This document shows, in pieces, positions 1-48,169 of a stretch of DNA of 64,000 nt. Position numbers and translations under genes: made by a program. This DNA comes from Leptolyngbyaceae cyanobacterium (GTDB taxonomy: Bacteria; Cyanobacteriota; Cyanobacteriia; Phormidesmidales; Phormidesmidaceae): positions 1,728,001-1,792,000 of the forward strand of contig CBDHHL010000032.1 of the NCBI GenBank assembly GCA_965263355.1. The letters run 5' to 3'. How positions within the stretch are numbered: position 1 is the first letter of the stretch; every line of letters begins with the position of its first letter. Below the pieces are notes generated by a model that saw only the letters and a list, made by a program, of their open reading frames with translations, searched no databases and had not been told where the DNA came from.

Positions 1-1193
1 TGATTCTTTCGCCACTTCTGCTGTACCGCGCTTTACAGGCATTTTTTGCTTGGAGAAAGCAAGTTAAAAAGAGAAGATGGTATGGAGAAGTAATAGGTGC
101 GGATGCTGAGCCTAAAAAGCCTCTGGCAGGAATATTTGATAGCTATTTTGCTTCAGATGAGTTTTCAATCAATTATGATAATAGCCCAGACACTCATATT
201 GATGTTGCACAAGACGAGCCTCGAGCTAAAGCCTTACAAGCGCAGAAAACTAAATTCTCCCAAGAAATTTCTCAGCGATTGCGAGAAATTTCTGAAGAGC
301 AAACCGATCTTTATGGTGAGATGAAAGACCTGGGTCGCAGTTTCAGGCGTTACTATTTAAGGTTTTTGCTTGAAAATGCTGACATTGATCTGGCCTTTAT
401 TCCTAGCTCAGTCAAACAAAGTTTGGCTGTGTTGATTCGACGCTCGAAGACCAGCGCAAAGCAAGCAGAAGACCAAATTCTCTACCTGAAGGAGGAAGTA
501 GAAGCCTGGTACGATCGTTCTATGGAGAGGGCTTCAGGGGTGTATAAGCGCAATGCCAAGGGAATTTCTATTCTGATTGGTGTTGTTCTAGCCATTGCCG
601 TTAATGCAAACTCAATCCACATTCTCGATCAGCTAGCCTTTGATCAAGAGTTGCGAGAAACGGTGGCGCTCAGGGCAGAAAATCTGGTTGAGCAGATTGA
701 TTCATCTGATGGCTTAAGTGAAGAAGAACAAGACAGCCTTTCCCAGGCCTCGCAGCTGTTGGATGATATGGACTTGCCCATAGGCTGGGATCCAGATTTG
801 ATTGGCGAGGAGTTTAAATGTGAGCCGATAAGTGAAGATAATAAAAATCAAAATAATACTTTAGAGTCGCCAGAACCTCAGCCGGAAGCGTCCTCTGAGC
901 AGGGGAGTCCATGGAATACGCTTTTCAAAGATTGTCTTTATGAAACCGCAGATGAGGTTACTCAATCGCCGGATAATTTTTTCCCGCCGACTGCGATCGC
1001 AGCGATCTTTTTAGCCGATCCCCTAGTCGGGTTGAAATTTTTACTAGGTTGGACATTAACAGGAATTGCCATCTCGATGGGAGCATCATTCTGGTTTGAT
1101 CTGCTAAGCAAGCTAGTCAAGGTACGCAATACCGGTAAGCAACTCTCTACTTCATCTGCAGAGTCAGACACCCAGAAGGTTACGGACACTTGA
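1..1193 (+). CDS. Hypothetical membrane protein, 5'-partial
   Basis: Frame of ORF 279..1193 is open back to the window start; EAWYDRSMERASGVYKRNAK, a TM helix and C-terminal GWTLTGIAISMGASFWFDLL. Confidence 0.75.
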   Translation, partial: ILSPLLLYRALQAFFAWRKQVKKRRWYGEVIGADAEPKKPLAGIFDSYFASDEFSINYDNSPDTHIDVAQDEPRAKALQAQKTKFSQEISQRLREISEEQTDLYGEMKDLGRSFRRYYLRFLLENADIDLAFIPSSVKQSLAVLIRRSKTSAKQAEDQILYLKEEVEAWYDRSMERASGVYKRNAKGISILIGVVLAIAVNANSIHILDQLAFDQELRETVALRAENLVEQIDSSDGLSEEEQDSLSQASQLLDDMDLPIGWDPDLIGEEFKCEPISEDNKNQNNTLESPEPQPEASSEQGSPWNTLFKDCLYETADEVTQSPDNFFPPTAIAAIFLADPLVGLKFLLGWTLTGIAISMGASFWFDLLSKLVKVRNTGKQLSTSSAESDTQKVTDT

Positions 1194-4822: not shown

Positions 4823-5429
4823 TGGAGCTAGCCATAATGGAACATTGGTATTTGAGCTGGCGATCGCAACTGATCAACAGCTCAAATACTTTATCTTCAC
4901 CCAGGGTAGCCAGCTGAGGTTCAATACTGCAATAGCGTCGCAGATATTCGAGATAGATAGCTTTATGGTGCTCCTCAGTCAGGTCAGGCTCGACCTGAAC
5001 AACAAAGTCATAGTCTTCGATGGTCTTATTTTTGCCATTACAGTTACCCTCGGTCAGATCGACACGATAGTCTTTATAGACTAAAAAGCAGTGGCTCTGG
5101 GGAATAAAGTCAAGTCCATGGGGCTGGAGAATGGCGTTAACTCCGGTGACAATATCGTCATTTAGACGGTAAAAACCAAGATGTTTGGAAATGGGTAGGT
5201 TGTGGGCATTGGCCAGTCTTGCGATCGCACCATGTTTTGTGGTGCAGTTACCATACCCTTCCTCGAACAGAATCAGTGAATCCTCACTGCTAGAATTTGC
5301 TGCATAAGGCAAGGCTTTAACCCAATGACACGCCTGTTGAAATGTAGTTAGTTCTCGCTGCAGACATTGTTCGGCAATCGGATCACCGGGTTGAAGATCG
5401 ACGTTAGGCAAAACATTTATCGGATGCAT
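4803..5429 (-). CDS. Hypothetical protein, possible transglutaminase-like Cys-His-Asp fold
   Basis: WVKALPY...GNCTTKH...SHCFL...RVDLT spacing resembles a papain-like triad. Confidence 0.6.
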   Translation of the reverse strand: MHPINVLPNVDLQPGDPIAEQCLQRELTTFQQACHWVKALPYAANSSSEDSLILFEEGYGNCTTKHGAIARLANAHNLPISKHLGFYRLNDDIVTGVNAILQPHGLDFIPQSHCFLVYKDYRVDLTEGNCNGKNKTIEDYDFVVQVEPDLTEEHHKAIYLEYLRRYCSIEPQLATLGEDKVFELLISCDRQLKYQCSIMASSIAHAAS

Positions 5430-34540: not shown

Positions 34541-35518
34541 TTAATCGCTAATGTATTCAGGAAAAAATTCAAACACCTGGGGATTGCGAGGGTTAACAAC
34601 TACCCGTAACCAATTGACATTGGGAGAGCCAAAGGTTTCTACCCGAGTGAAGTTGTCAATATCGACATTGTCATCAGGAACATTGAGGGGCTTGTCAATG
34701 CGGAAATAGTGGCTATCACCGTGGACCAATACAACGGGTTTGCCAAAGGCTAGGGTTTCTGCCTGGAGCAGATCAATAAAGTCATTAAACCCAGTACGCT
34801 CCTCAGGTTCTCTATCAAAGCGGGGGTTGGCATGGATAACGACCATTAGCGCACGGCTATTTTGACTGTCTGCTTCATCAAACGCTTCTTCTAACCAAGC
34901 TAAGTTGGCTTCATTCCGATCCTCATATTCAGCATCGTTCTCAGCATTGCGACCCAGGTTATTGTTACTACCTACAACATGGATACCAGCGTAGGTCACC
35001 TCGCCATAGTTCCAAATGACATTCTCACGATATTCACTAAACCCTGACTCATCGCTCTGACGCCTTACGGTCAAAGTTCGCTGACCCAGGGTTTGGTTTC
35101 CATCAGATACTGGGAAGAAAAGCTCACGGATTTTGGCCAAACGCTCAATGGGATCAAACTGCCCAGCCCCTTCACGGTGACAATCCGTCCACTCGTTATC
35201 ACCAGGAATATAAATCAACGGATGCACAAATCGCTGAAATAAATTCAACCGTGCTTCAAAGGCTTCGTCTGTACAGGGCGTAGACCCCCCTTTAAAGTCA
35301 CCATCATGAACGATAAATTCTAAGCGGGAGCTATTAATCTCAGACAACAGCGTTTCGAACTTTTCTTCCTGGATCGGATCGTAGGGAAGGTCACCAGTAA
35401 GCGCAAACTCGTAGCGACTTAGATTGCTAGAACGCTGAGCCAAGCCAGGTACGGCTAAAGCGGCTGAAAATAGACCGGCTAAACAAACAGAAGACAGGAG
35501 TAGATGCTTGATACGCAT
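34541..35518 (-). CDS. Secreted calcineurin-like metallophosphoesterase
   Basis: Signal peptide; GDLPY, HDGDFK, PGDNEW, IHANP, HGDSH. Confidence 0.82.
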   Translation of the reverse strand: MRIKHLLLSSVCLAGLFSAALAVPGLAQRSSNLSRYEFALTGDLPYDPIQEEKFETLLSEINSSRLEFIVHDGDFKGGSTPCTDEAFEARLNLFQRFVHPLIYIPGDNEWTDCHREGAGQFDPIERLAKIRELFFPVSDGNQTLGQRTLTVRRQSDESGFSEYRENVIWNYGEVTYAGIHVVGSNNNLGRNAENDAEYEDRNEANLAWLEEAFDEADSQNSRALMVVIHANPRFDREPEERTGFNDFIDLLQAETLAFGKPVVLVHGDSHYFRIDKPLNVPDDNVDIDNFTRVETFGSPNVNWLRVVVNPRNPQVFEFFPEYISD

Positions 35519-40676: not shown

Positions 40677-41225
40677 ATGAACTTCCAAAAGGTATTCATA
40701 CTGATAACAGTCTCTTTAGGAGCTGTGTTGATAGTGCCATTTATACCAAAAGCCAGGGCTAGAGGTGATTATTTTCAGCTAACGACAATGTTCCTTGAAC
40801 ATGAAAACAAGTGTTTTGAAGGCAATCGTCTGGCCCCTGAATCAGTGTTAAAGGGCGCAGCTTTTATGGATGATTGCCAAAATGTATCAGGGCAGCTGTG
40901 GAAGAAAATACCGGCTGACAATGGTTATTTTAAGCTGACCACCTTGTTTCTGGAGGGGCAGTATAAATGTCTTGAAGGGAATCAGGTAACCGATGGGTCA
41001 GTCTTAGGAGGTGCAGCCTTTATGGACAATTGTCGCAATGTGTCGAGCCAGCTATGGAAGGTGATGCCGGTCGGTAATGGTTACTATAAACTGACGACAA
41101 TGTTTCTGGAAGGTCAGAATAAGTGTCTTGACGGAAATCGTCTGGCTCCTGAGTCGATGTTGGGAGGGGCTGCCTTTATGAATGATTGTCAGGATGTATC
41201 AGGACAGCTGTGGACAATTAAGTAG
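40677..41225 (+). CDS. Secreted ricin-B-like (beta-trefoil) lectin
   Basis: Signal peptide and three ~51-aa repeats GYFxLTT..KCLEGN..GAAFMDxC.NVSGQLW. Confidence 0.82.
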   Translation: MNFQKVFILITVSLGAVLIVPFIPKARARGDYFQLTTMFLEHENKCFEGNRLAPESVLKGAAFMDDCQNVSGQLWKKIPADNGYFKLTTLFLEGQYKCLEGNQVTDGSVLGGAAFMDNCRNVSSQLWKVMPVGNGYYKLTTMFLEGQNKCLDGNRLAPESMLGGAAFMNDCQDVSGQLWTIK

Positions 41226-42548: not shown

Positions 42549-42681
42549 TAGTGGTCTGGCAAGCCTAAGATTTTCGGTAAGATGGTTAAAGAGCCAAGAG
42601 TCTAAAGGGATGAAGAGTCACTCTTTACCCGTCACCCTTTATCAGTAACCAACCCGAATTTTTAGCTTTGACGATGCATTA
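42549..42681. mobile_element. 133-bp MITE-like element, copy 2
   Basis: Colinear with 32058-32190; its end overlaps the TAA of the TPR gene tail. Confidence 0.8.
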
Positions 42682-45600
42682 GTCGCTGGGTTCATTATTC
42701 TCTTGAATAGACTGAATTTTCTGAAGAGCATAGTCCTTTAAAGGGGCAACGTTAATCTCTTCGCCAATGGTAGCAGCAGCTTGTAGACTACTGATTGCTT
42801 GTTCGGTTTGGTTAAGGGCTAAGTAGGCATCAGAAATAAACATATATAGGTTTCGTCCCTGGCTATAGCGATCTCCGATTTGACTATAGACTGTTTGAGC
42901 AGTTTGATAGGCTTCCAGGGCTACGTTGGGGTCTTCCTCCAGGCTGCCAATGGCCTGAAGCGTATTGGCTTCGCCGAGGCGAGCACCCACCTGGCGATAA
43001 ATGGCGTTCTCGATGGCGTTCTCGTAGTTTTCTAAGGCCTCATCTCTGCGGTCGAGAAATTGCCAAGCTTGGACGCTTCGAGGCCAATGGCGATTCTCGA
43101 GTTCTCGTATCTAAGGCGTTTGAGAAATTTCGCTTTGAGCGTATTGGCTTCGCCGAGGCGATCACCCACCTGGCGATAAATCTCGATGGCGTTCTCGTAG
43201 TTTTCTAAGGCCTCACTACTTCGTTTGAGAAATTGCAGCACGTCGCCAATGGCTTTGAGCGTATTGGCTTCGCCGAGGCGAGCACCCACCTGGCGATAAA
43301 TCTCGATGGCGTTCTCGTAGTTTTCTAAGGCCTCATCTCTGCGGTCGAGAAATTGCAGCACGTCGCCAATGGCTTTGAGCGTATTGGCTTCGCCGAGGCG
43401 AGCACCCACCTGGCGATAAATCTCGATGGCGTTCTCGTAGTTTTCTAAGGCCTCACTACTTCGTTTGAGAAATTGCAGCACGTCGCCAATGGCTTTGAGC
43501 GTATTGGCTTCGCCGAGGCGAGCACCCACCTGGCGATAAATCTCGATGGCGTTCTCGTAGTTTTCTAAGGCCTCACTACTTCGTTTGAGAAATTGCAGCA
43601 CGTCGCCAATGGCTTGGAGCGTATTGGCTTCGCCGAGGCGATCACCCACCTGGCGATAAATCTCGATGGCGTTCTCGTAGTTTTCTAAGGCCTCACTACT
43701 TCGTTTGAGAAATTGCAGCACGTCGCCAATGGCTTGGAGCGTATTGGCTTCGCCGAGGCGATCACCCACCTGGCGATAAATCTCGATGGCGTTCTCGTAG
43801 TTTTCTAAGGCCTCATCTCTGCGGTCGAGAAATTGCAGCACGTCGCCAATGGCTTTGAGCGTATTGGCTTCGCCGAGGCGAGCACCCACCTGGCGATAAA
43901 TCTCGATGGCGTTCTCGTAGTTTTCTAAGGCCTCACTACTTCGTTTGAGAAATTGCAGCACGTCGCCAATGGCTTTGAGCGTATTGGCTTCGCCGAGGCG
44001 AGCACCCACCTGGCGATAAATCTCGATGGCGTTCTCGTAGTTTTCTAAGGCCTCACTACTTCGTTTGAGAAATTGCAGCACGTCGCCAATGGCTTGGAGC
44101 GTATTGGCTTCGCCGAGGCGATCACCCACCTGGCGATAAATCTCGATGGCGTTCTCGTAGTTTTCTAAGGCCTCACTACTTCGTTTGAGAAATTGCAGCA
44201 CGTCGCCAATGGCTTTGAGCGTATTGGCTTCGCCGAGGCGAGCACCCACCTGGCGATAAATCTCGATGGCGTTCTCGTAGTTTTCTAAGGCCTCATCTCT
44301 GCGGTTGAGAAATTGCAGCACGTCGCCAATGGCTTTGAGCGTATTGGCTTCGCCGAGGCGAGCACCCACCTGGCGATAAATCTCGATGGCGTTCTCGTAG
44401 TTTTCTAAGGCCTCATCTCTGCGGTCGAGAAATTGCAGCACGTCGCCAATGGCTTGGAGCGTATTGGCTTCGCCGAGGCGAGCACCCACCTGGCGATAAA
44501 TCTCGATGGCGTTCTCGTAGTTTTCTAAGGCCTCATCTCTGCGGTCGAGAAATTGCAGCACGTCGCCAATGGCTTTGAGCGTATTGGCTTCGCCGAGGCG
44601 AGCACCCACCTGGCGATAAATCTCGATGGCGTTCTCGTAGTTTTCTAAGGCCTCATCTCTGCGGTCGAGAAATTGCAGCACGTCGCCAATGGCTTTGAGC
44701 GTATTGGCTTCGCCGAGGCGATCACCCACCTGGCGATAAATCTCGATGGCGTTCTCGTAGTTTTCTAAGGCCTCATCTCTGCGGTCGAGAAATTGCAGCA
44801 CGTCGCCGTATTTCTTCAAAACATCAGCGTATATTCTCTTATCCTCATTTTCGGGAATCCAGCCCCATAAAGCTACCTCGTATAGCTCATGGCGGACCTG
44901 ACTATAGCCCCGTAGCTGTAACACCATATCCAAACTGCTGTAGCGGTCTTCCTCATCCGTATCCTGCCATAGCAAATTCAGGGCTTCGGTGCGTTGCTCT
45001 AACTGGCAGAGATGATAGAAAAGTTCTTTATAGGCAAATGTTTCTGCCAGCTGAGTGCTCGGTCCCAAATATGGCTGCAGCTGGGGCAAATAAAACTTGA
45101 CAGCCTTCTGATGACCATCATTATTTCCATTCCGGTTCAAATATCGCTGAATTAGCGGCTGAAACTGATACTGCCAAAGGCGCTCACCATTAATGGAGTC
45201 TTTTTGGGCCACCAGCAACGATCGTTTGGCCAGCTGCCGCAGTTGCTGATCACTTATCGTGTCGTTTACCATCGCTTGGGCCGCCTTCAGGGTAAACGGC
45301 TGTCGATAGACACTGCTATATTGCAGCACATGCCGTAGCGTTTCCGGTAGCCGCTCTAATGTTGCCTCTAGCAGTTTGGCAATGCTGGTTTCCGGTTGAC
45401 CGCGATGTAACCCAATCAGGTCAAACAGATTCATCCCGCTAATAGTAGTGAGATTATTCACATGGGGGTCGTCTTCGTCGTCGTCAAGCAGCCAGCCCGC
45501 TGACAGTTTCAACAATAGGGGATGCCCCTCTGCTGCATCCACCAGCGTTTGTAACTCTATTTCATTGCCTACTATGTCAAGCTTTTGCAATAAGCTCACT

Positions 45601-46193
45601 CCAGCCGGGGTGCTTAGACCATCTACTTGTTGCCATTTACAATAAGGCCGCACATTGGCAGGCAGCTTGGGCTCCTCTCGACTAGTGACTAAAACCTTAC
45701 TAGCACTTTTGCTGCCCAACCACCCTAATAAAAATGTCTCATAGCCGTTATCAATCCAGGTACCATCAGATTGCAGTAATGTTTCCAGGTTGTCTAAAAT
45801 CAGCAAATAGCAACCGACTGACAGTTGATTAATTACCCGATCCGCAAGTTCCTTATTACCTGTCTGGTCATCTACTGCCAGATTAAAGTGAGCTAAAAAC
45901 CATCGCCCCCAGATTGCAAACGAATAGGGCTGGTTAAACGAAATGGCCAGGGTAAATTTTATTCTATGTTCTACTCTTTGACACTGCTCCTTAATGATTT
46001 CTGCCAAAGCCGATTTGCCAAAGCCCCCAGCACCTTTAAGGCCGATCAGCTGTATGGCATCCTTTGTTAGCCAGGTGTGTAAATTTTCCAGCTCAGTCTC
46101 TCGCCCCTGCCAGTGACGGGTATCGGGACGAAAGTTGGGGCTAATAAAATCATCCGGGTTTAACGTTGGCTGGACCGCTCCAGACGACTCTAG
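42679..46193 (-). CDS. NB-ARC (STAND) - TPR NLR-like protein; no own canonical start; frame broken at scrambled repeat 42990-43135
   Basis: WQGRETEL, Walker A GAGGFGKS (upstream of the track start), Walker B LLILDNLE, VLVTSRE, GHPLLLKL; 40-aa TPR array; C-cap in ORF 42679..42990. Confidence 0.85.
43132..44807. repeat. 14 near-identical 120-bp tandem coding repeats (40-aa TPR)
   Basis: Sequence lines recur every 120 bp from 43141 to 44761; variation is confined to three sites per unit. Confidence 0.97.
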
Positions 46194-46649
46194 CTAATCG
46201 GTTTTCTGAACATAAGTAATATTTTGAGTACCGCCAATGTAGTTGGTGCTGTTATTTCCGTCGATCTGGTTAATATAGCCCGTAGCGTTGTCGTGGATAT
46301 TTTGCACAGTCGAGCTATTGTCGTTAACCTTGCCAAGGTTAATTTCCTGACCCAGCAGCGTTAGTTCATTAGCAAACTGCGGATCTTCCCGCATGGCAAT
46401 CTTCAAATAATCGGAAACGGCCTCCAGGTCTTCTGTATTACCTTGACTGGCTTCTAACCGTTTTGCTGCATTTACCGCCGGAGCGTTGCCCGTCAGTCGC
46501 GTCATAATTTTCTGGCGCAGCTCCTCCATTTTACCCAGGGCCGCTTCGGTAAATTTCTTGGCTGTTTCCCCTGCCGCCGTTTCCAAAAATTTCTTAAATG
46601 CCAACTCTGTGAGGGCTGATGCTGTGAATGTAGCGACCGGTCCGACCAT
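46194..46649 (-). CDS. Helical Bell/HeLL-like effector candidate with N/Q/G/T-rich amyloid-like tail, in frame with the NB-ARC gene
   Basis: LAFKKFLETAAGETAKKFTEAAL...AMREDPQFANEL then STVQNIHDNATGYINQIDGNNSTNYIGGTQNITY; TAG at 46194-46196. Confidence 0.65.
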   Translation of the reverse strand: MVGPVATFTASALTELAFKKFLETAAGETAKKFTEAALGKMEELRQKIMTRLTGNAPAVNAAKRLEASQGNTEDLEAVSDYLKIAMREDPQFANELTLLGQEINLGKVNDNSSTVQNIHDNATGYINQIDGNNSTNYIGGTQNITYVQKTD

Positions 46650-46754
46650 CGTGATAACCTTCAGATACTTCAATCAGTTTCGTTATAACTTAACAATCCT
46701 GATATCGGTAATTCCTGAAAGTTTTTGATAGGGTTTACAGTTTATTGCCATAGT

Positions 46755-47327
46755 TTATTGCCATGTTTCGATATCTGGCCGTAGGGGGTCCTTTAGTTGA
46801 AAGCCACCGGACATCCATGACCAAAAGTCAGGAGCGTGTAGAGCCATTCGTCTGATCGCGTAATCTGGCAAGACAAAGACCATTAGATACGGCAGTTGAA
46901 GGGTAAATACATCACGAACCCAGTTAAGATTTACTAAAAATGGCGGATATTCTCCCTTTTTACCAATCGAATTTTCTAATCCTTGCAAGATAAATACTAG
47001 CTTTTTGCCGTTGGCCTGCTTGATAACGGTTGGTAGTACAGCTTTAATTTCGGGTATCAAATAGCGGAGCTGAGGATTGTTGAACTTTAAGGTTTCAAAA
47101 TGGATGTTGTGGCAGCGTGGATGGTGTTGAAGATGATCGGCAATACCATTTATGTCCCAGGAGACTATATTCCAGGATAAACTGACTGCGATAAAGCCTA
47201 GGGTGAATCCCTCTGAGAAATCAGCAAAAACAGCTAGTTCATTGAGTGTTTTTACATTTAATTTTAAAAACTCAGTAGATAAAGAAGTGTTTAATCTCTC
47301 TTGCATGTGGTGATGATTTTGCCTCAC
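46755..47327 (-). CDS. Stand-alone (probably truncated) inactive-STAND-like domain of the type found N-terminal to cyanobacterial TPR proteins
   Basis: LVFILQGLENSI...LVNLNWVRD...MALHAPDFWSWMSG; ends at a 13-bp tandem duplication 46739-46764. Confidence 0.55.
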   Translation of the reverse strand: MRQNHHHMQERLNTSLSTEFLKLNVKTLNELAVFADFSEGFTLGFIAVSLSWNIVSWDINGIADHLQHHPRCHNIHFETLKFNNPQLRYLIPEIKAVLPTVIKQANGKKLVFILQGLENSIGKKGEYPPFLVNLNWVRDVFTLQLPYLMVFVLPDYAIRRMALHAPDFWSWMSGGFQLKDPLRPDIETWQ

Positions 47328-47488
47328 AGAGCAAATTTTATCAAACTTCCGTTTCTTGAATTCGTTGAACGTTGGGTAACTATAGATATCAGCTACCTCA
47401 GTCTATTCCTTCTTTGTCCATCCCCCCCCACAGAGATCACTATGTCCCATACAATGAAATTAAACCCAGTGCGAACACCAGACAGGCC

Positions 47489-48169
47489 ATGGCATTAACC
47501 GCGCAAGAACTGGCAGATCTAATGCCAGATGCCACTCAACTAGAAAGTAATGAACCAGAAATGGAAAGTTCGTTGCACTATGCCCAGCTAGCATTGCTAG
47601 TAGCCTGTTTAGACTGGTTATGGCGGGACCGAACCGACTTTTTTATTGGCGCTAATCTAACCATTTACTTTAGTCGAGAACAGCTCAAAAATCGTGACTA
47701 CCGTGGCCCAGACTTCTTTTTAATCAAAAATACTGAGCGGCATCCCCGCAAATCTTGGGTGGTTTGGGAAGAGCGGGGTCAATATCCCGATTTAATTATT
47801 GAATTGCTGTCCGAGTCAACGGCAAAGACCGATAAAAACTTAAAGAAGGCCCTCTATCAAGACCGATTTCGCACGCCAGAATATTTCTGGTTTTCACCGG
47901 AGACCCTAGAGTTTGAAGGGTTTCGATTAGTGGACCAACGCTATGAACCAATCGCGCCCACAGAAAATGGATACCTTTGGAGTCAGGCCCTTGAGCTTTA
48001 CCTGGGTGTTCAAGCAGGGCAGTTGCGCTATTTCCAAGAAAATAGGGAGCTGGTGTTAACCCCTGAGGAAGCAGCAGAACAGGCTCAAACGCAGGCTCAG
48101 GAAGCTGCAGCACGAGCTGCTAGATTAGCAGAGCAGCTAAGGGCATTGGGCATAGAACCGGATAGTTAG
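47489..48169 (+). CDS. Uma2 (DUF820) family endonuclease
   Basis: EPEMESSLH, RGPDFF, RKSWVVWEE, PDLIIELLSEST, TPEYFWF. Confidence 0.92.
   Translation: MALTAQELADLMPDATQLESNEPEMESSLHYAQLALLVACLDWLWRDRTDFFIGANLTIYFSREQLKNRDYRGPDFFLIKNTERHPRKSWVVWEERGQYPDLIIELLSESTAKTDKNLKKALYQDRFRTPEYFWFSPETLEFEGFRLVDQRYEPIAPTENGYLWSQALELYLGVQAGQLRYFQENRELVLTPEEAAEQAQTQAQEAAARAARLAEQLRALGIEPDS

Follow-up and report, generated by a model that had tools for sequence, protein, structure and literature searches.

A conserved RNA element behind an in-frame stop codon links Bell-like effectors to NLR sensors in Cyanobacteria and likely programs readthrough

Results

A Bell-like effector and an NLR share one reading frame across a TAG codon

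We analysed a 64,000-nucleotide (nt) stretch of the genome of a Leptolyngbyaceae cyanobacterium (contig CBDHHL010000032.1, positions 1,728,001 to 1,792,000; hereafter the window, numbered from its first letter), in which a short gene for a helical, Bell-like effector is followed, beyond a single TAG, by a long frame encoding an NB-ARC-TPR protein (NLR). An initial reading of these letters without database searches (the sequence-only reading) had placed effector, TAG and NLR in one frame and had suggested that leaky termination couples them. The single frame was confirmed: on the minus strand the effector coding part (46649-46197) meets the TAG (46196-46194) and continues for another 1053 open codons (...YVQKTD-stop-LESSGAVQP...WQGRETEL...GAGGFGKS). 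As had also been claimed, no ATG, GTG or TTG lies between the TAG and the Walker A motif (codons +54 to +61 after the stop, 46011-46034), the earliest being a TTG at codon +63 (46007) and the earliest ATG codon +254, and no second copy of the effector's tail motif is visible between the stop and the NB-ARC domain. The window has 43 open reading frames (ORFs) of 150 aa or longer, and only the effector ORF has more than 340 open codons beyond its stop; TAG is a normal stop in the window, because the other 16 TAG-ended ORFs of this size precede just 0-43 open codons. Assembled contigs from three public runs (two samples, one study) span the TAG without an alternative letter, a check made on contigs rather than raw reads, and one of the runs may be the source of the window DNA.

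An AlphaFold model of the effector, built with 56 sequences, showed residues 5-105 as six helical segments and the tail (110-151) at low confidence. This bears out the helical protein with a motif tail of the sequence-only reading, although the motif spans 46212-46313 and not about 46212-46325. The model was moderate (pLDDT 62, pTM 0.49); fold searches with it gave a best Z of 5.7 and no Foldseek match at E 0.001, a sequence search of the PDB returned nothing below E 0.01, and no profile in Pfam, NCBIfam or PADLOC matched the effector. Thus the helical bundle was predicted, but neither a profile nor a solved structure tied it to Bell or HeLL folds. The Atlas search led to unnamed cyanobacterial clusters, one with HetE-N on 12% of its members, which is a lead only. 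No relative longer than the 151-aa protein was present among 995 candidates, a weak test. The family consensus starts with MEPxxLTA, like the 'MEPIS' motif at the N-terminus of Bell/Hell domains (10.1101/2024.11.07.622273; this preprint, the one cited next and the PMC articles below are cited from excerpts); the window protein itself starts with MVGP. A Bell domain is expected to be a short bundle of five helices, the N-terminal one hydrophobic, with an acidic residue at position 2-3. Consensus, size, taxonomic range and gene context agree with the Bell domain of Dyrka et al. (10.1101/2020.01.06.895854). The tail has the composition of a BASS motif (about 25 aa, rich in Q, N, G, V and I, poor in K, P and L) and resembles the receptor-side motif copy of L123 (z 5.5), a canonical two-gene pair; canonical loci have further copies of related motifs at the N-termini of their NLRs. 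We infer from these features that the tail may form amyloid.

Table 1. Coordinates of the features of the effector-NLR locus in the window
Feature	Position	Strand	Remarks
Effector ORF, 151 aa, Bell-like helical domain and amyloid-like tail, TAG-terminated	46194..46649	-	Relatives end at the same place
Helical bundle, residues 5-105, hydrophobic first helix	46335..46637	-	AlphaFold prediction
BASS-like tail, residues 113-146	46212..46313	-	7 N, 5 T, 5 I, 4 G, 3 Q, 3 Y of 34; no P, K, L
In-frame stop codon, conserved	46194..46196	-	TAG in window, TGA in most relatives; C next
RNA element, window copy	46154-46196	-	Conserved across loci
8-nt spacer, stop to stem 1 (element nt 4-11)	46186..46193	-	Alignment A2, ungapped
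Stem 1 and loop (nt 12-16 with 25-29)	46168..46185	-	4/5 pairs in window, plus two extra pairs in loop
Proposed pseudoknot stem 2	46155..46177	-	Loop nt 20-23 (46174-46177) with nt 39-42 (46155-46158)
NB-ARC domain	45516..46103	-	Codons +31..226 past stop; Pfam PF00931, E 1.6e-9
TPR sensor array, 14 near-identical copies of a 120-nt unit	43132..44807	-	97% matches
Scrambled repeat-array end and separated C-terminal cap (ORF 42679-42990)	42679..43131	-	

The stop is conserved and the frame beyond it is constrained

All 13 full-length relatives of the effector measure 147-155 aa and end at the same point. Sixteen loci were fetched, among them six full-length orthologous loci (L001-L006, from Phormidesmis-like genomes, 48-58% identity), each with TAG-CTR followed by an in-frame NB-ARC frame that is open for 519-719 codons. 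The stop is thus conserved with an intact downstream frame. The same in-frame layout occurs with different NTPases in L010 (Xenococcus PCC 7305, TGA) and L013 (TAG), in the ordinary pairs L008, L012, L014 and L015 the downstream gene starts at an ATG of its own, and L007, L011 and L016 are truncated. In L011 a close relative of the window effector (88-345, 92%) is broken after 85 codons by inserted, unrelated transposase-like DNA. L009 has a TAA (at 5337) within a Bell-tail-TIR-like frame that lacks the element described below; the close database protein P0153 is uninterrupted, and this TAA looks like a real nonsense change or an error.

The ratio of nonsynonymous to synonymous substitution rates (dN/dS) was estimated on 27 pairs hand-picked as close relatives, and was below 1 in every measurable pair: the median was 0.28 for the effector (20/20 pairs), 0.25 for codons +14 to +55 past the stop (25/25) and 0.25 for codons +14 to +300 (24/24). 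These values indicate that the frame downstream of the stop is under purifying selection, and the relaxed selection that would have spoken against coupling was not found. The sequence-only reading had offered a recent CAG-to-TAG nonsense mutation in an all-in-one gene as the simpler alternative, with the NLR left as a pseudogene. Uninterrupted all-in-one Bell-NLR proteins do exist (P0244, P0255), and some element loci hold broken NLRs. Nevertheless, we exclude this explanation because relatives keep the stop, dN/dS is about 0.25 downstream and the contigs show TAG; with the stop retained between orthologues about 50% identical as proteins and across the 104 loci described below, always as one of two stop types, it has practically no standing for the family as a whole.

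A shared element of about 41 nt follows the stop

Nine in-frame loci have about 41 nt in common, counted from the stop, a conservation that was absent from the sequence-only account. A DNA-only pattern derived from these nine loci, in which the first codon was TRR (thus admitting TAA and TGG also) and two mismatches were allowed, had 39 matches, spread over 27 of the 401 genomes searched in the phylum, against one for the reversed pattern. All 39 start with TGA, and 38 coincide exactly with the stop that ends a Bell-like frame (124-211 codons); L026 was dropped as a chance match. Downstream frames matched NB-ARC, NACHT or nSTAND1 in 42 of 46 cases. A second pattern that left the stop unconstrained gave 54 matches in 39 of 301 genomes (seven control matches). 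Fourteen were known before and 40 were fetched, 29 of them effector/sensor junctions; the remaining 11, with a downstream frame open for just 10-77 codons, were dropped. The 43 junctions among the 54 matches have TGA (36) or TAG (7), and nothing else. A covariance model added plasmid copies from Acaryochloris marina, Nostoc, Allocoleopsis and Fremyella and found copies in 9 of 61 genomes of another family, and inspection by eye of a protein-selected set gave four further copies, including L111 and L115, in which the stem described below is absent.

In total we collected 104 distinct elements from cyanobacterial genomes and plasmids, 87 with TGA, 17 with TAG and none with TAA. The base right after the stop (+4) is C in 101, the frame stays open for at least 100 codons past the stop in 102, and a Walker A motif, where one was found, is in frame 0 in 97 of 98 loci. 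All eight plasmid matches are cyanobacterial, and viral contigs gave no match to the element pattern. A TAA version of the pattern had no match in 41 genomes, a small sample. Rfam covariance models gave no hit at gathering score in five loci, and near the window locus merely weak eukaryotic matches with E above 1. In 100 of 104 elements a T or C precedes the stop, and G never does (one pattern disfavoured G), which may reflect an effect of the P-site tRNA.

Base-pair covariation supports a hairpin and a probable pseudoknot

Pairing was assessed on 93 unique copies in a fixed register, with the first base of the stop as nt 1; seven copies with indels or without the stem were left out of the pair counts. 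Stem 1 joins nt 12-16 with nt 25-29, and 97.8% of its cells are paired in alignment A2. Pair 15-26 is kept in 92/93 copies (CG 50, UG 15, GC 14, UA 13), and in a held-out set in 47/47 against 27.6 expected from shuffles that ignore kinship among copies; pair 13-28 is kept in 85/93 (CG 50, UA 34). Base swaps in stem 1 lead to other amino acids (R/Q/P; P/S; T/V/A), and all 93 copies have NCG as codon +3, whichever amino acid results, so that the constraint acts on nucleotides. G-U pairs are frequent (15 at pair 15-26, 35 at pair 12-29), and the structure is therefore placed at the RNA level. Stem 1, which is also present in the minimum-energy fold of 75/97 copies folded from nt 12, is thus well supported by the alignment; single-strand folding z-scores of short pieces were not significant. 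For stem 2, pair 20-42, neither column of which was fixed by the search patterns, is kept in 85/93 copies (GC 58, GU 15, CG 9, AU 3) against 67.5 expected, and pair 23-39 in 74/93 against 64.8. These counts make an H-type pseudoknot probable. The window copy has three of the four stem 2 pairs, with the C20-G42 variant.

One could argue that the element is a DNA-level cassette junction, or a signal for transcription or RNA decay, and that its translation is incidental. It does sit at the point where effectors and sensors are swapped, with many partners, and it often occurs on plasmids near transposases. However, the free use of G-U pairs points to RNA, no U-tract terminator was found at the element, and the conservation of frame together with the avoidance of stops described next require translation, which makes this explanation highly improbable.

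The element appears to be translated in the effector frame

In codons +1 to +15 of 94 elements there are no in-frame stops, compared to 13.2 expected from the column frequencies, while stops in the other two frames are near expectation (120 vs 128.8; 72 vs 65.7). At codon +2 all six copies that start with T have TAC or TAT, though 69 of 79 others end in a purine. Both patterns indicate that the element is translated in the frame of the effector. Three database proteins, known from protein records alone, have the element peptide fused to the effector via a sense residue, which is Trp in P0023 (WP_435027459.1, a rearranged gene) and P0191, and Glu in P0167.

The alternative that the NLR is made separately, by re-initiation or a non-canonical start at a TTG, GTG or Ile codon (about +17 to +26) with the RNA controlling the coupling, was weighed on the codons ahead of the conserved xGR motif of 82 NB-ARC loci. 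No ATG precedes the motif in 78 and no ATG, GTG or TTG in 48; conversely, one of these three does in 34, and an Ile codon lies at +16 to +18 in 53. In RefSeq, codon +17 is the start of three Acaryochloris NLRs and codon +1 that of one; over all records, the RefSeq start positions vary (+1, +17, +30, +39, +43, +51, +103), a scatter that is expected if no true start exists. The candidate starts are not conserved, and five loci have no ATG, GTG, TTG, ATH or CTG at all ahead of the motif. The Ile-Pro concerned is also found within canonical NLRs that begin far upstream, and no Shine-Dalgarno-like pairing precedes Ile17 (median +2.5 vs -1.5 kcal/mol before effector ATGs). Moreover, a fixed frame is not required for re-initiation, but 97/98 loci keep one across unrelated partners, stops are avoided in codons +1 to +15, and the resulting NLR would carry neither effector nor motif. 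We therefore consider separate initiation unlikely.

Recoding by selenocysteine or pyrrolysine, or ribosomal bypassing, would also yield a fusion, and a stem-loop just 3' of a UGA is the layout of the bacterial selenocysteine insertion sequence (SECIS; PMC7026636). However, tRNA-Sec and SelB each lacked a match over the family cut-off in 5/5 element-bearing genomes, no PylS was found in 5/5 genomes with TAG elements (most of them drafts), and the same element stands behind both TGA and TAG. Bypassing would call for matched take-off and landing codons, but the pre-stop codon recurs downstream in just 19/104 elements, against 25.9 in shuffles. These routes have very little to recommend them, as little as a DNA-level signal.

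Finally, the structure might direct A-to-I RNA editing to the stop, which would change UAG or UGA to a codon for Trp, and the fusion would come from edited transcripts. TAG and TGA are each one A-to-G step from TGG, TAA (two steps away) is absent, and Trp stands at the junction of two of the three fused proteins. Yet the stop lies outside the conserved stems and at ribosome-channel distance from them, the annotated neighbourhoods showed no gene for an editing enzyme, and the lack of TAA and the insertion of Trp are equally expected under readthrough (PMC11126739). Editing is in our judgement very unlikely.

Two architectures and a portable junction

To compare element loci with canonical ones, 30 Bell loci were chosen by protein profile alone, albeit with a profile biased toward element-bearing proteins. 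Thirteen are of the in-frame type (12 with TGA-C, and the frameshifted L104) and 17 are not; TAA ends 10 of these 17 (Fisher p 0.001). A copy of the effector tail lies just downstream in 14/22 canonical-type loci and in 0/83 element loci, the canonical loci having been searched in three frames and over a longer stretch. In the canonical Bell-NLR loci, Walker A shares the frame of the effector in 2/13, a count that omits eight motif-less loci and L107, whose motif is 445 codons off. Canonical two-gene pairs occur within the same protein families (L015, L109, L116, L123). In a quick NB-ARC tree of 76 element and 11 canonical rows the two types interleave, with nine changes, at least four of them forced by well-supported branches.

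Besides Bell-like effectors, the element is found 3' of nine alpha/beta-hydrolase genes and one PNP_UDP gene, most of whose products end in similar beta-rich tails, and on the sensor side it precedes several NB-ARC clades as well as NACHT, nSTAND1 and PsbP-like domains. From this range of partners, the element appears as a portable junction between effectors and sensors. In L070 and L103 the element links a Bell-like gene to a membrane-anchored PsbP-like domain instead of an NTPase. On an Acaryochloris plasmid (L135:2586-7044) two element loci lie in tandem next to a HigA antitoxin gene; their effectors, an alpha/beta hydrolase and a Bell-like protein, have nearly identical tails.

Surroundings of the window locus

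The TPR units (43132-44807) vary at few positions, where they alternate between two or three residue blocks, like shuffled hypervariable sensors. Repeat fragments at 42960-43140 (-) interrupt the NLR frame ahead of the C-terminal cap; this scrambled array end is probably a misassembly of the repeats, and no contig bridging it was among the public-run contigs listed. Directly upstream of the effector, a 190-aa ORF without Pfam match (46755-47327, -) resembles the N-terminal domain of the cyanobacterial TPR protein P0023 (30%, E 4e-10), in which that domain precedes a Bell-NLR, fused; the ORF looks like a truncated remnant of a STAND-like/TPR gene. A 13-bp tandem repeat (2.4 copies, 46739-46768) lies between this ORF and the effector start. 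The run contigs differ from the window at 47421 and 47456, by a one-base insertion and deletion at the start of a Uma2-type nuclease gene (47372-48169). A ricin-type beta-trefoil lectin-like protein of 182 aa is encoded nearby at 40677-41225 (+). Two more ORFs with long in-frame open stretches, at 34543 (-) and 35554 (-), are followed by 200 codons after TAA and 336 after TGA, respectively; these are probably neighbouring genes that share a frame.

Discussion

We consider it likely that the element programs partial readthrough of the stop codon, yielding abundant free effector and a scarce effector-tail-NLR fusion. The coupling suggested by the sequence-only reading is thus supported and extended by a putative cis-acting, covarying hairpin/pseudoknot 8 nt past the stop that is common to 104 loci. 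We infer the readthrough itself, its rate, the templating of amyloid and a role in defence. In this scheme most ribosomes would end at the TAG or TGA and release free effector with its amyloid-like tail, while a minority would be slowed, or kept from terminating, by the leaky stop-C context and by the hairpin/H-type pseudoknot, which starts at nt +12, at the mRNA entry channel. A near-cognate residue would then be inserted (Trp at UGA; Gln, Tyr or Lys at UAG) and the NB-ARC-TPR part translated, so that the rare fusion would bear the same tail as the free effector. On sensing a ligand through its TPR array, the fusion would oligomerise by its NB-ARC domain, and the clustered tails would seed amyloid assembly of the free effector, leading to cell death or growth arrest. 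Termination is leaky in the contexts UGA-C and UGA-CUA and tightest at UAA (PMC7026636), and an Escherichia coli reporter showed Trp inserted at TGA and Gln, Tyr or Lys at TAG (PMC11126739).

Several observations weigh against this proposal. In the same reporter G, not C, was the leakiest base after the stop (PMC11126739). The candidate starts of 34 loci and the Ile codons of 53 are described above, and in L138 a GTG is the first codon past the stop. L111 and L115 (L115:+1882) combine TGA-CTG and a long in-frame NB-ARC with the lack of stem 1 and an ATG at +22, and may represent a second signal type or an ordinary start. Downstream frames stop before 400 codons in 19 of the 58 that were fully seen, some of these being clearly broken NLRs. 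As to the pseudoknot, pair 21-41 is G-C in 92/93 copies, and such near-invariance gives less support to stem 2; pair 22-40 does no better than independence, nt 19 and 43 do not pair across the 93 copies, and kinship among the copies is ignored by all the shuffle-based expectations. The window copy is itself atypical, with mismatches U13-C28 and U23-C39: its short hairpin reaches -6.4 kcal/mol (z -1.0), and longer pieces favour another hairpin.

Bell/BASS-NLR two-gene amyloid signalling pairs have been described by Dyrka et al. (10.1101/2020.01.06.895854). As in these pairs, filamentous cyanobacteria here have an NB-ARC/NACHT-TPR gene directly preceded by one for a short helical effector with an N/G/Q/I-rich motif at its C-terminus, and other effectors (such as alpha/beta hydrolase) also bear such motifs. 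The window has the adjacent, collinear NB-ARC/repeat gene of such a pair, but its receptor has no start of its own ahead of Walker A and no matching N-terminal motif copy (0/83 element loci for the motif), and it stands in frame with the effector stop behind a conserved RNA structure. Nor does the window form the single open frame of an all-in-one effector-NLR, since the conserved stop intervenes. These two architectures, two-gene and all-in-one, are the only ones named in the excerpts of that work, whose main text mentions neither readthrough nor a stop codon. The Bab/Agp antiphage system resembles the proposed one in its Bell-related membrane-targeting effector, amyloid templating from a receptor and MEPIS-like N-terminus, but its two proteins are separate, each with a motif copy, and it belongs to enterobacteria and uses a non-NLR receptor; the excerpts of its description make no mention of readthrough (10.1101/2024.11.07.622273).

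Among recoding signals, the closest in layout is that of Moloney murine leukemia virus (MoMLV) gag-pol. There, the free protein and the rare fusion share an assembly domain, as is proposed here. Both have a stop, a spacer of 8 nt and then a pseudoknot of the H type, a probable one in Cyanobacteria, that forms part of the coding sequence for any readthrough product, and that of MoMLV starts at +12 as well (PMC13517186). The cyanobacterial element differs in that it would act on bacterial ribosomes and release factors and in cellular immune genes, in its much smaller size (about 31 nt, with stems of 5 and 3-4 bp, vs 50 nt), and in having mostly UGA-CUR where MoMLV has UAG-G; we claim no sequence likeness. 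SECIS shares the stem-loop 3' of an in-frame UGA, but the element occurs without SelB or tRNA-Sec in the five genomes tested, also with UAG, and matches no Rfam family. The Qbeta coat/A1 pair is a case of bacterial UGA readthrough (3-5%) in which the longer protein shares the N-terminal assembly domain; it is, however, a phage gene with the context UGAACU, and the excerpts mention no conserved pseudoknot (PMC13517186).

Taken together, the RNA element and the architecture of one frame with two products appear to be new, because they depart from the defining features of BASS two-gene pairs, all-in-one NLRs and SECIS and match no Rfam family, while the protein parts are of known kinds. The portions of the literature on bacterial NLR and amyloid systems that were covered mention no such element, readthrough or stop codon; subscription journals, figures and bioRxiv supplements lay outside this scope, and an earlier mention is possible. 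Programmed readthrough driven by a conserved 3' RNA structure is an established mechanism in animal viruses and eukaryotic genes; for bacteria, the reviews consulted describe context-driven leakiness and the factor-dependent SECIS.

We think that the element is probably a portable bacterial recoding RNA, a minimal pseudoknot that promotes UGA/UAG readthrough without dedicated factors and serves across Cyanobacteria as a plug-in junction, through which any effector gene gives, in a fixed proportion, the free effector and its fusion to a sensor. The more than 100 natural, covarying 45-nt signals make it testable whether bacterial ribosomes obey the +12 roadblock rule, and would offer a compact part for fixed-ratio fusion expression. 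If our proposal is correct, the annotated starts of many cyanobacterial NLRs are false and too late, lying within the NB-ARC domain or shortly ahead of it. It would also explain how a motif-less receptor takes part in amyloid signalling: effector and receptor would share the very same motif and therefore could not drift apart, with their ratio built in. Amyloid-based immune signalling would then have a third architecture, one that corresponds in bacteria to retroviral Gag/Gag-Pol and that may also act as a switch, tunable by stress or infection, for the amount of armed receptor.

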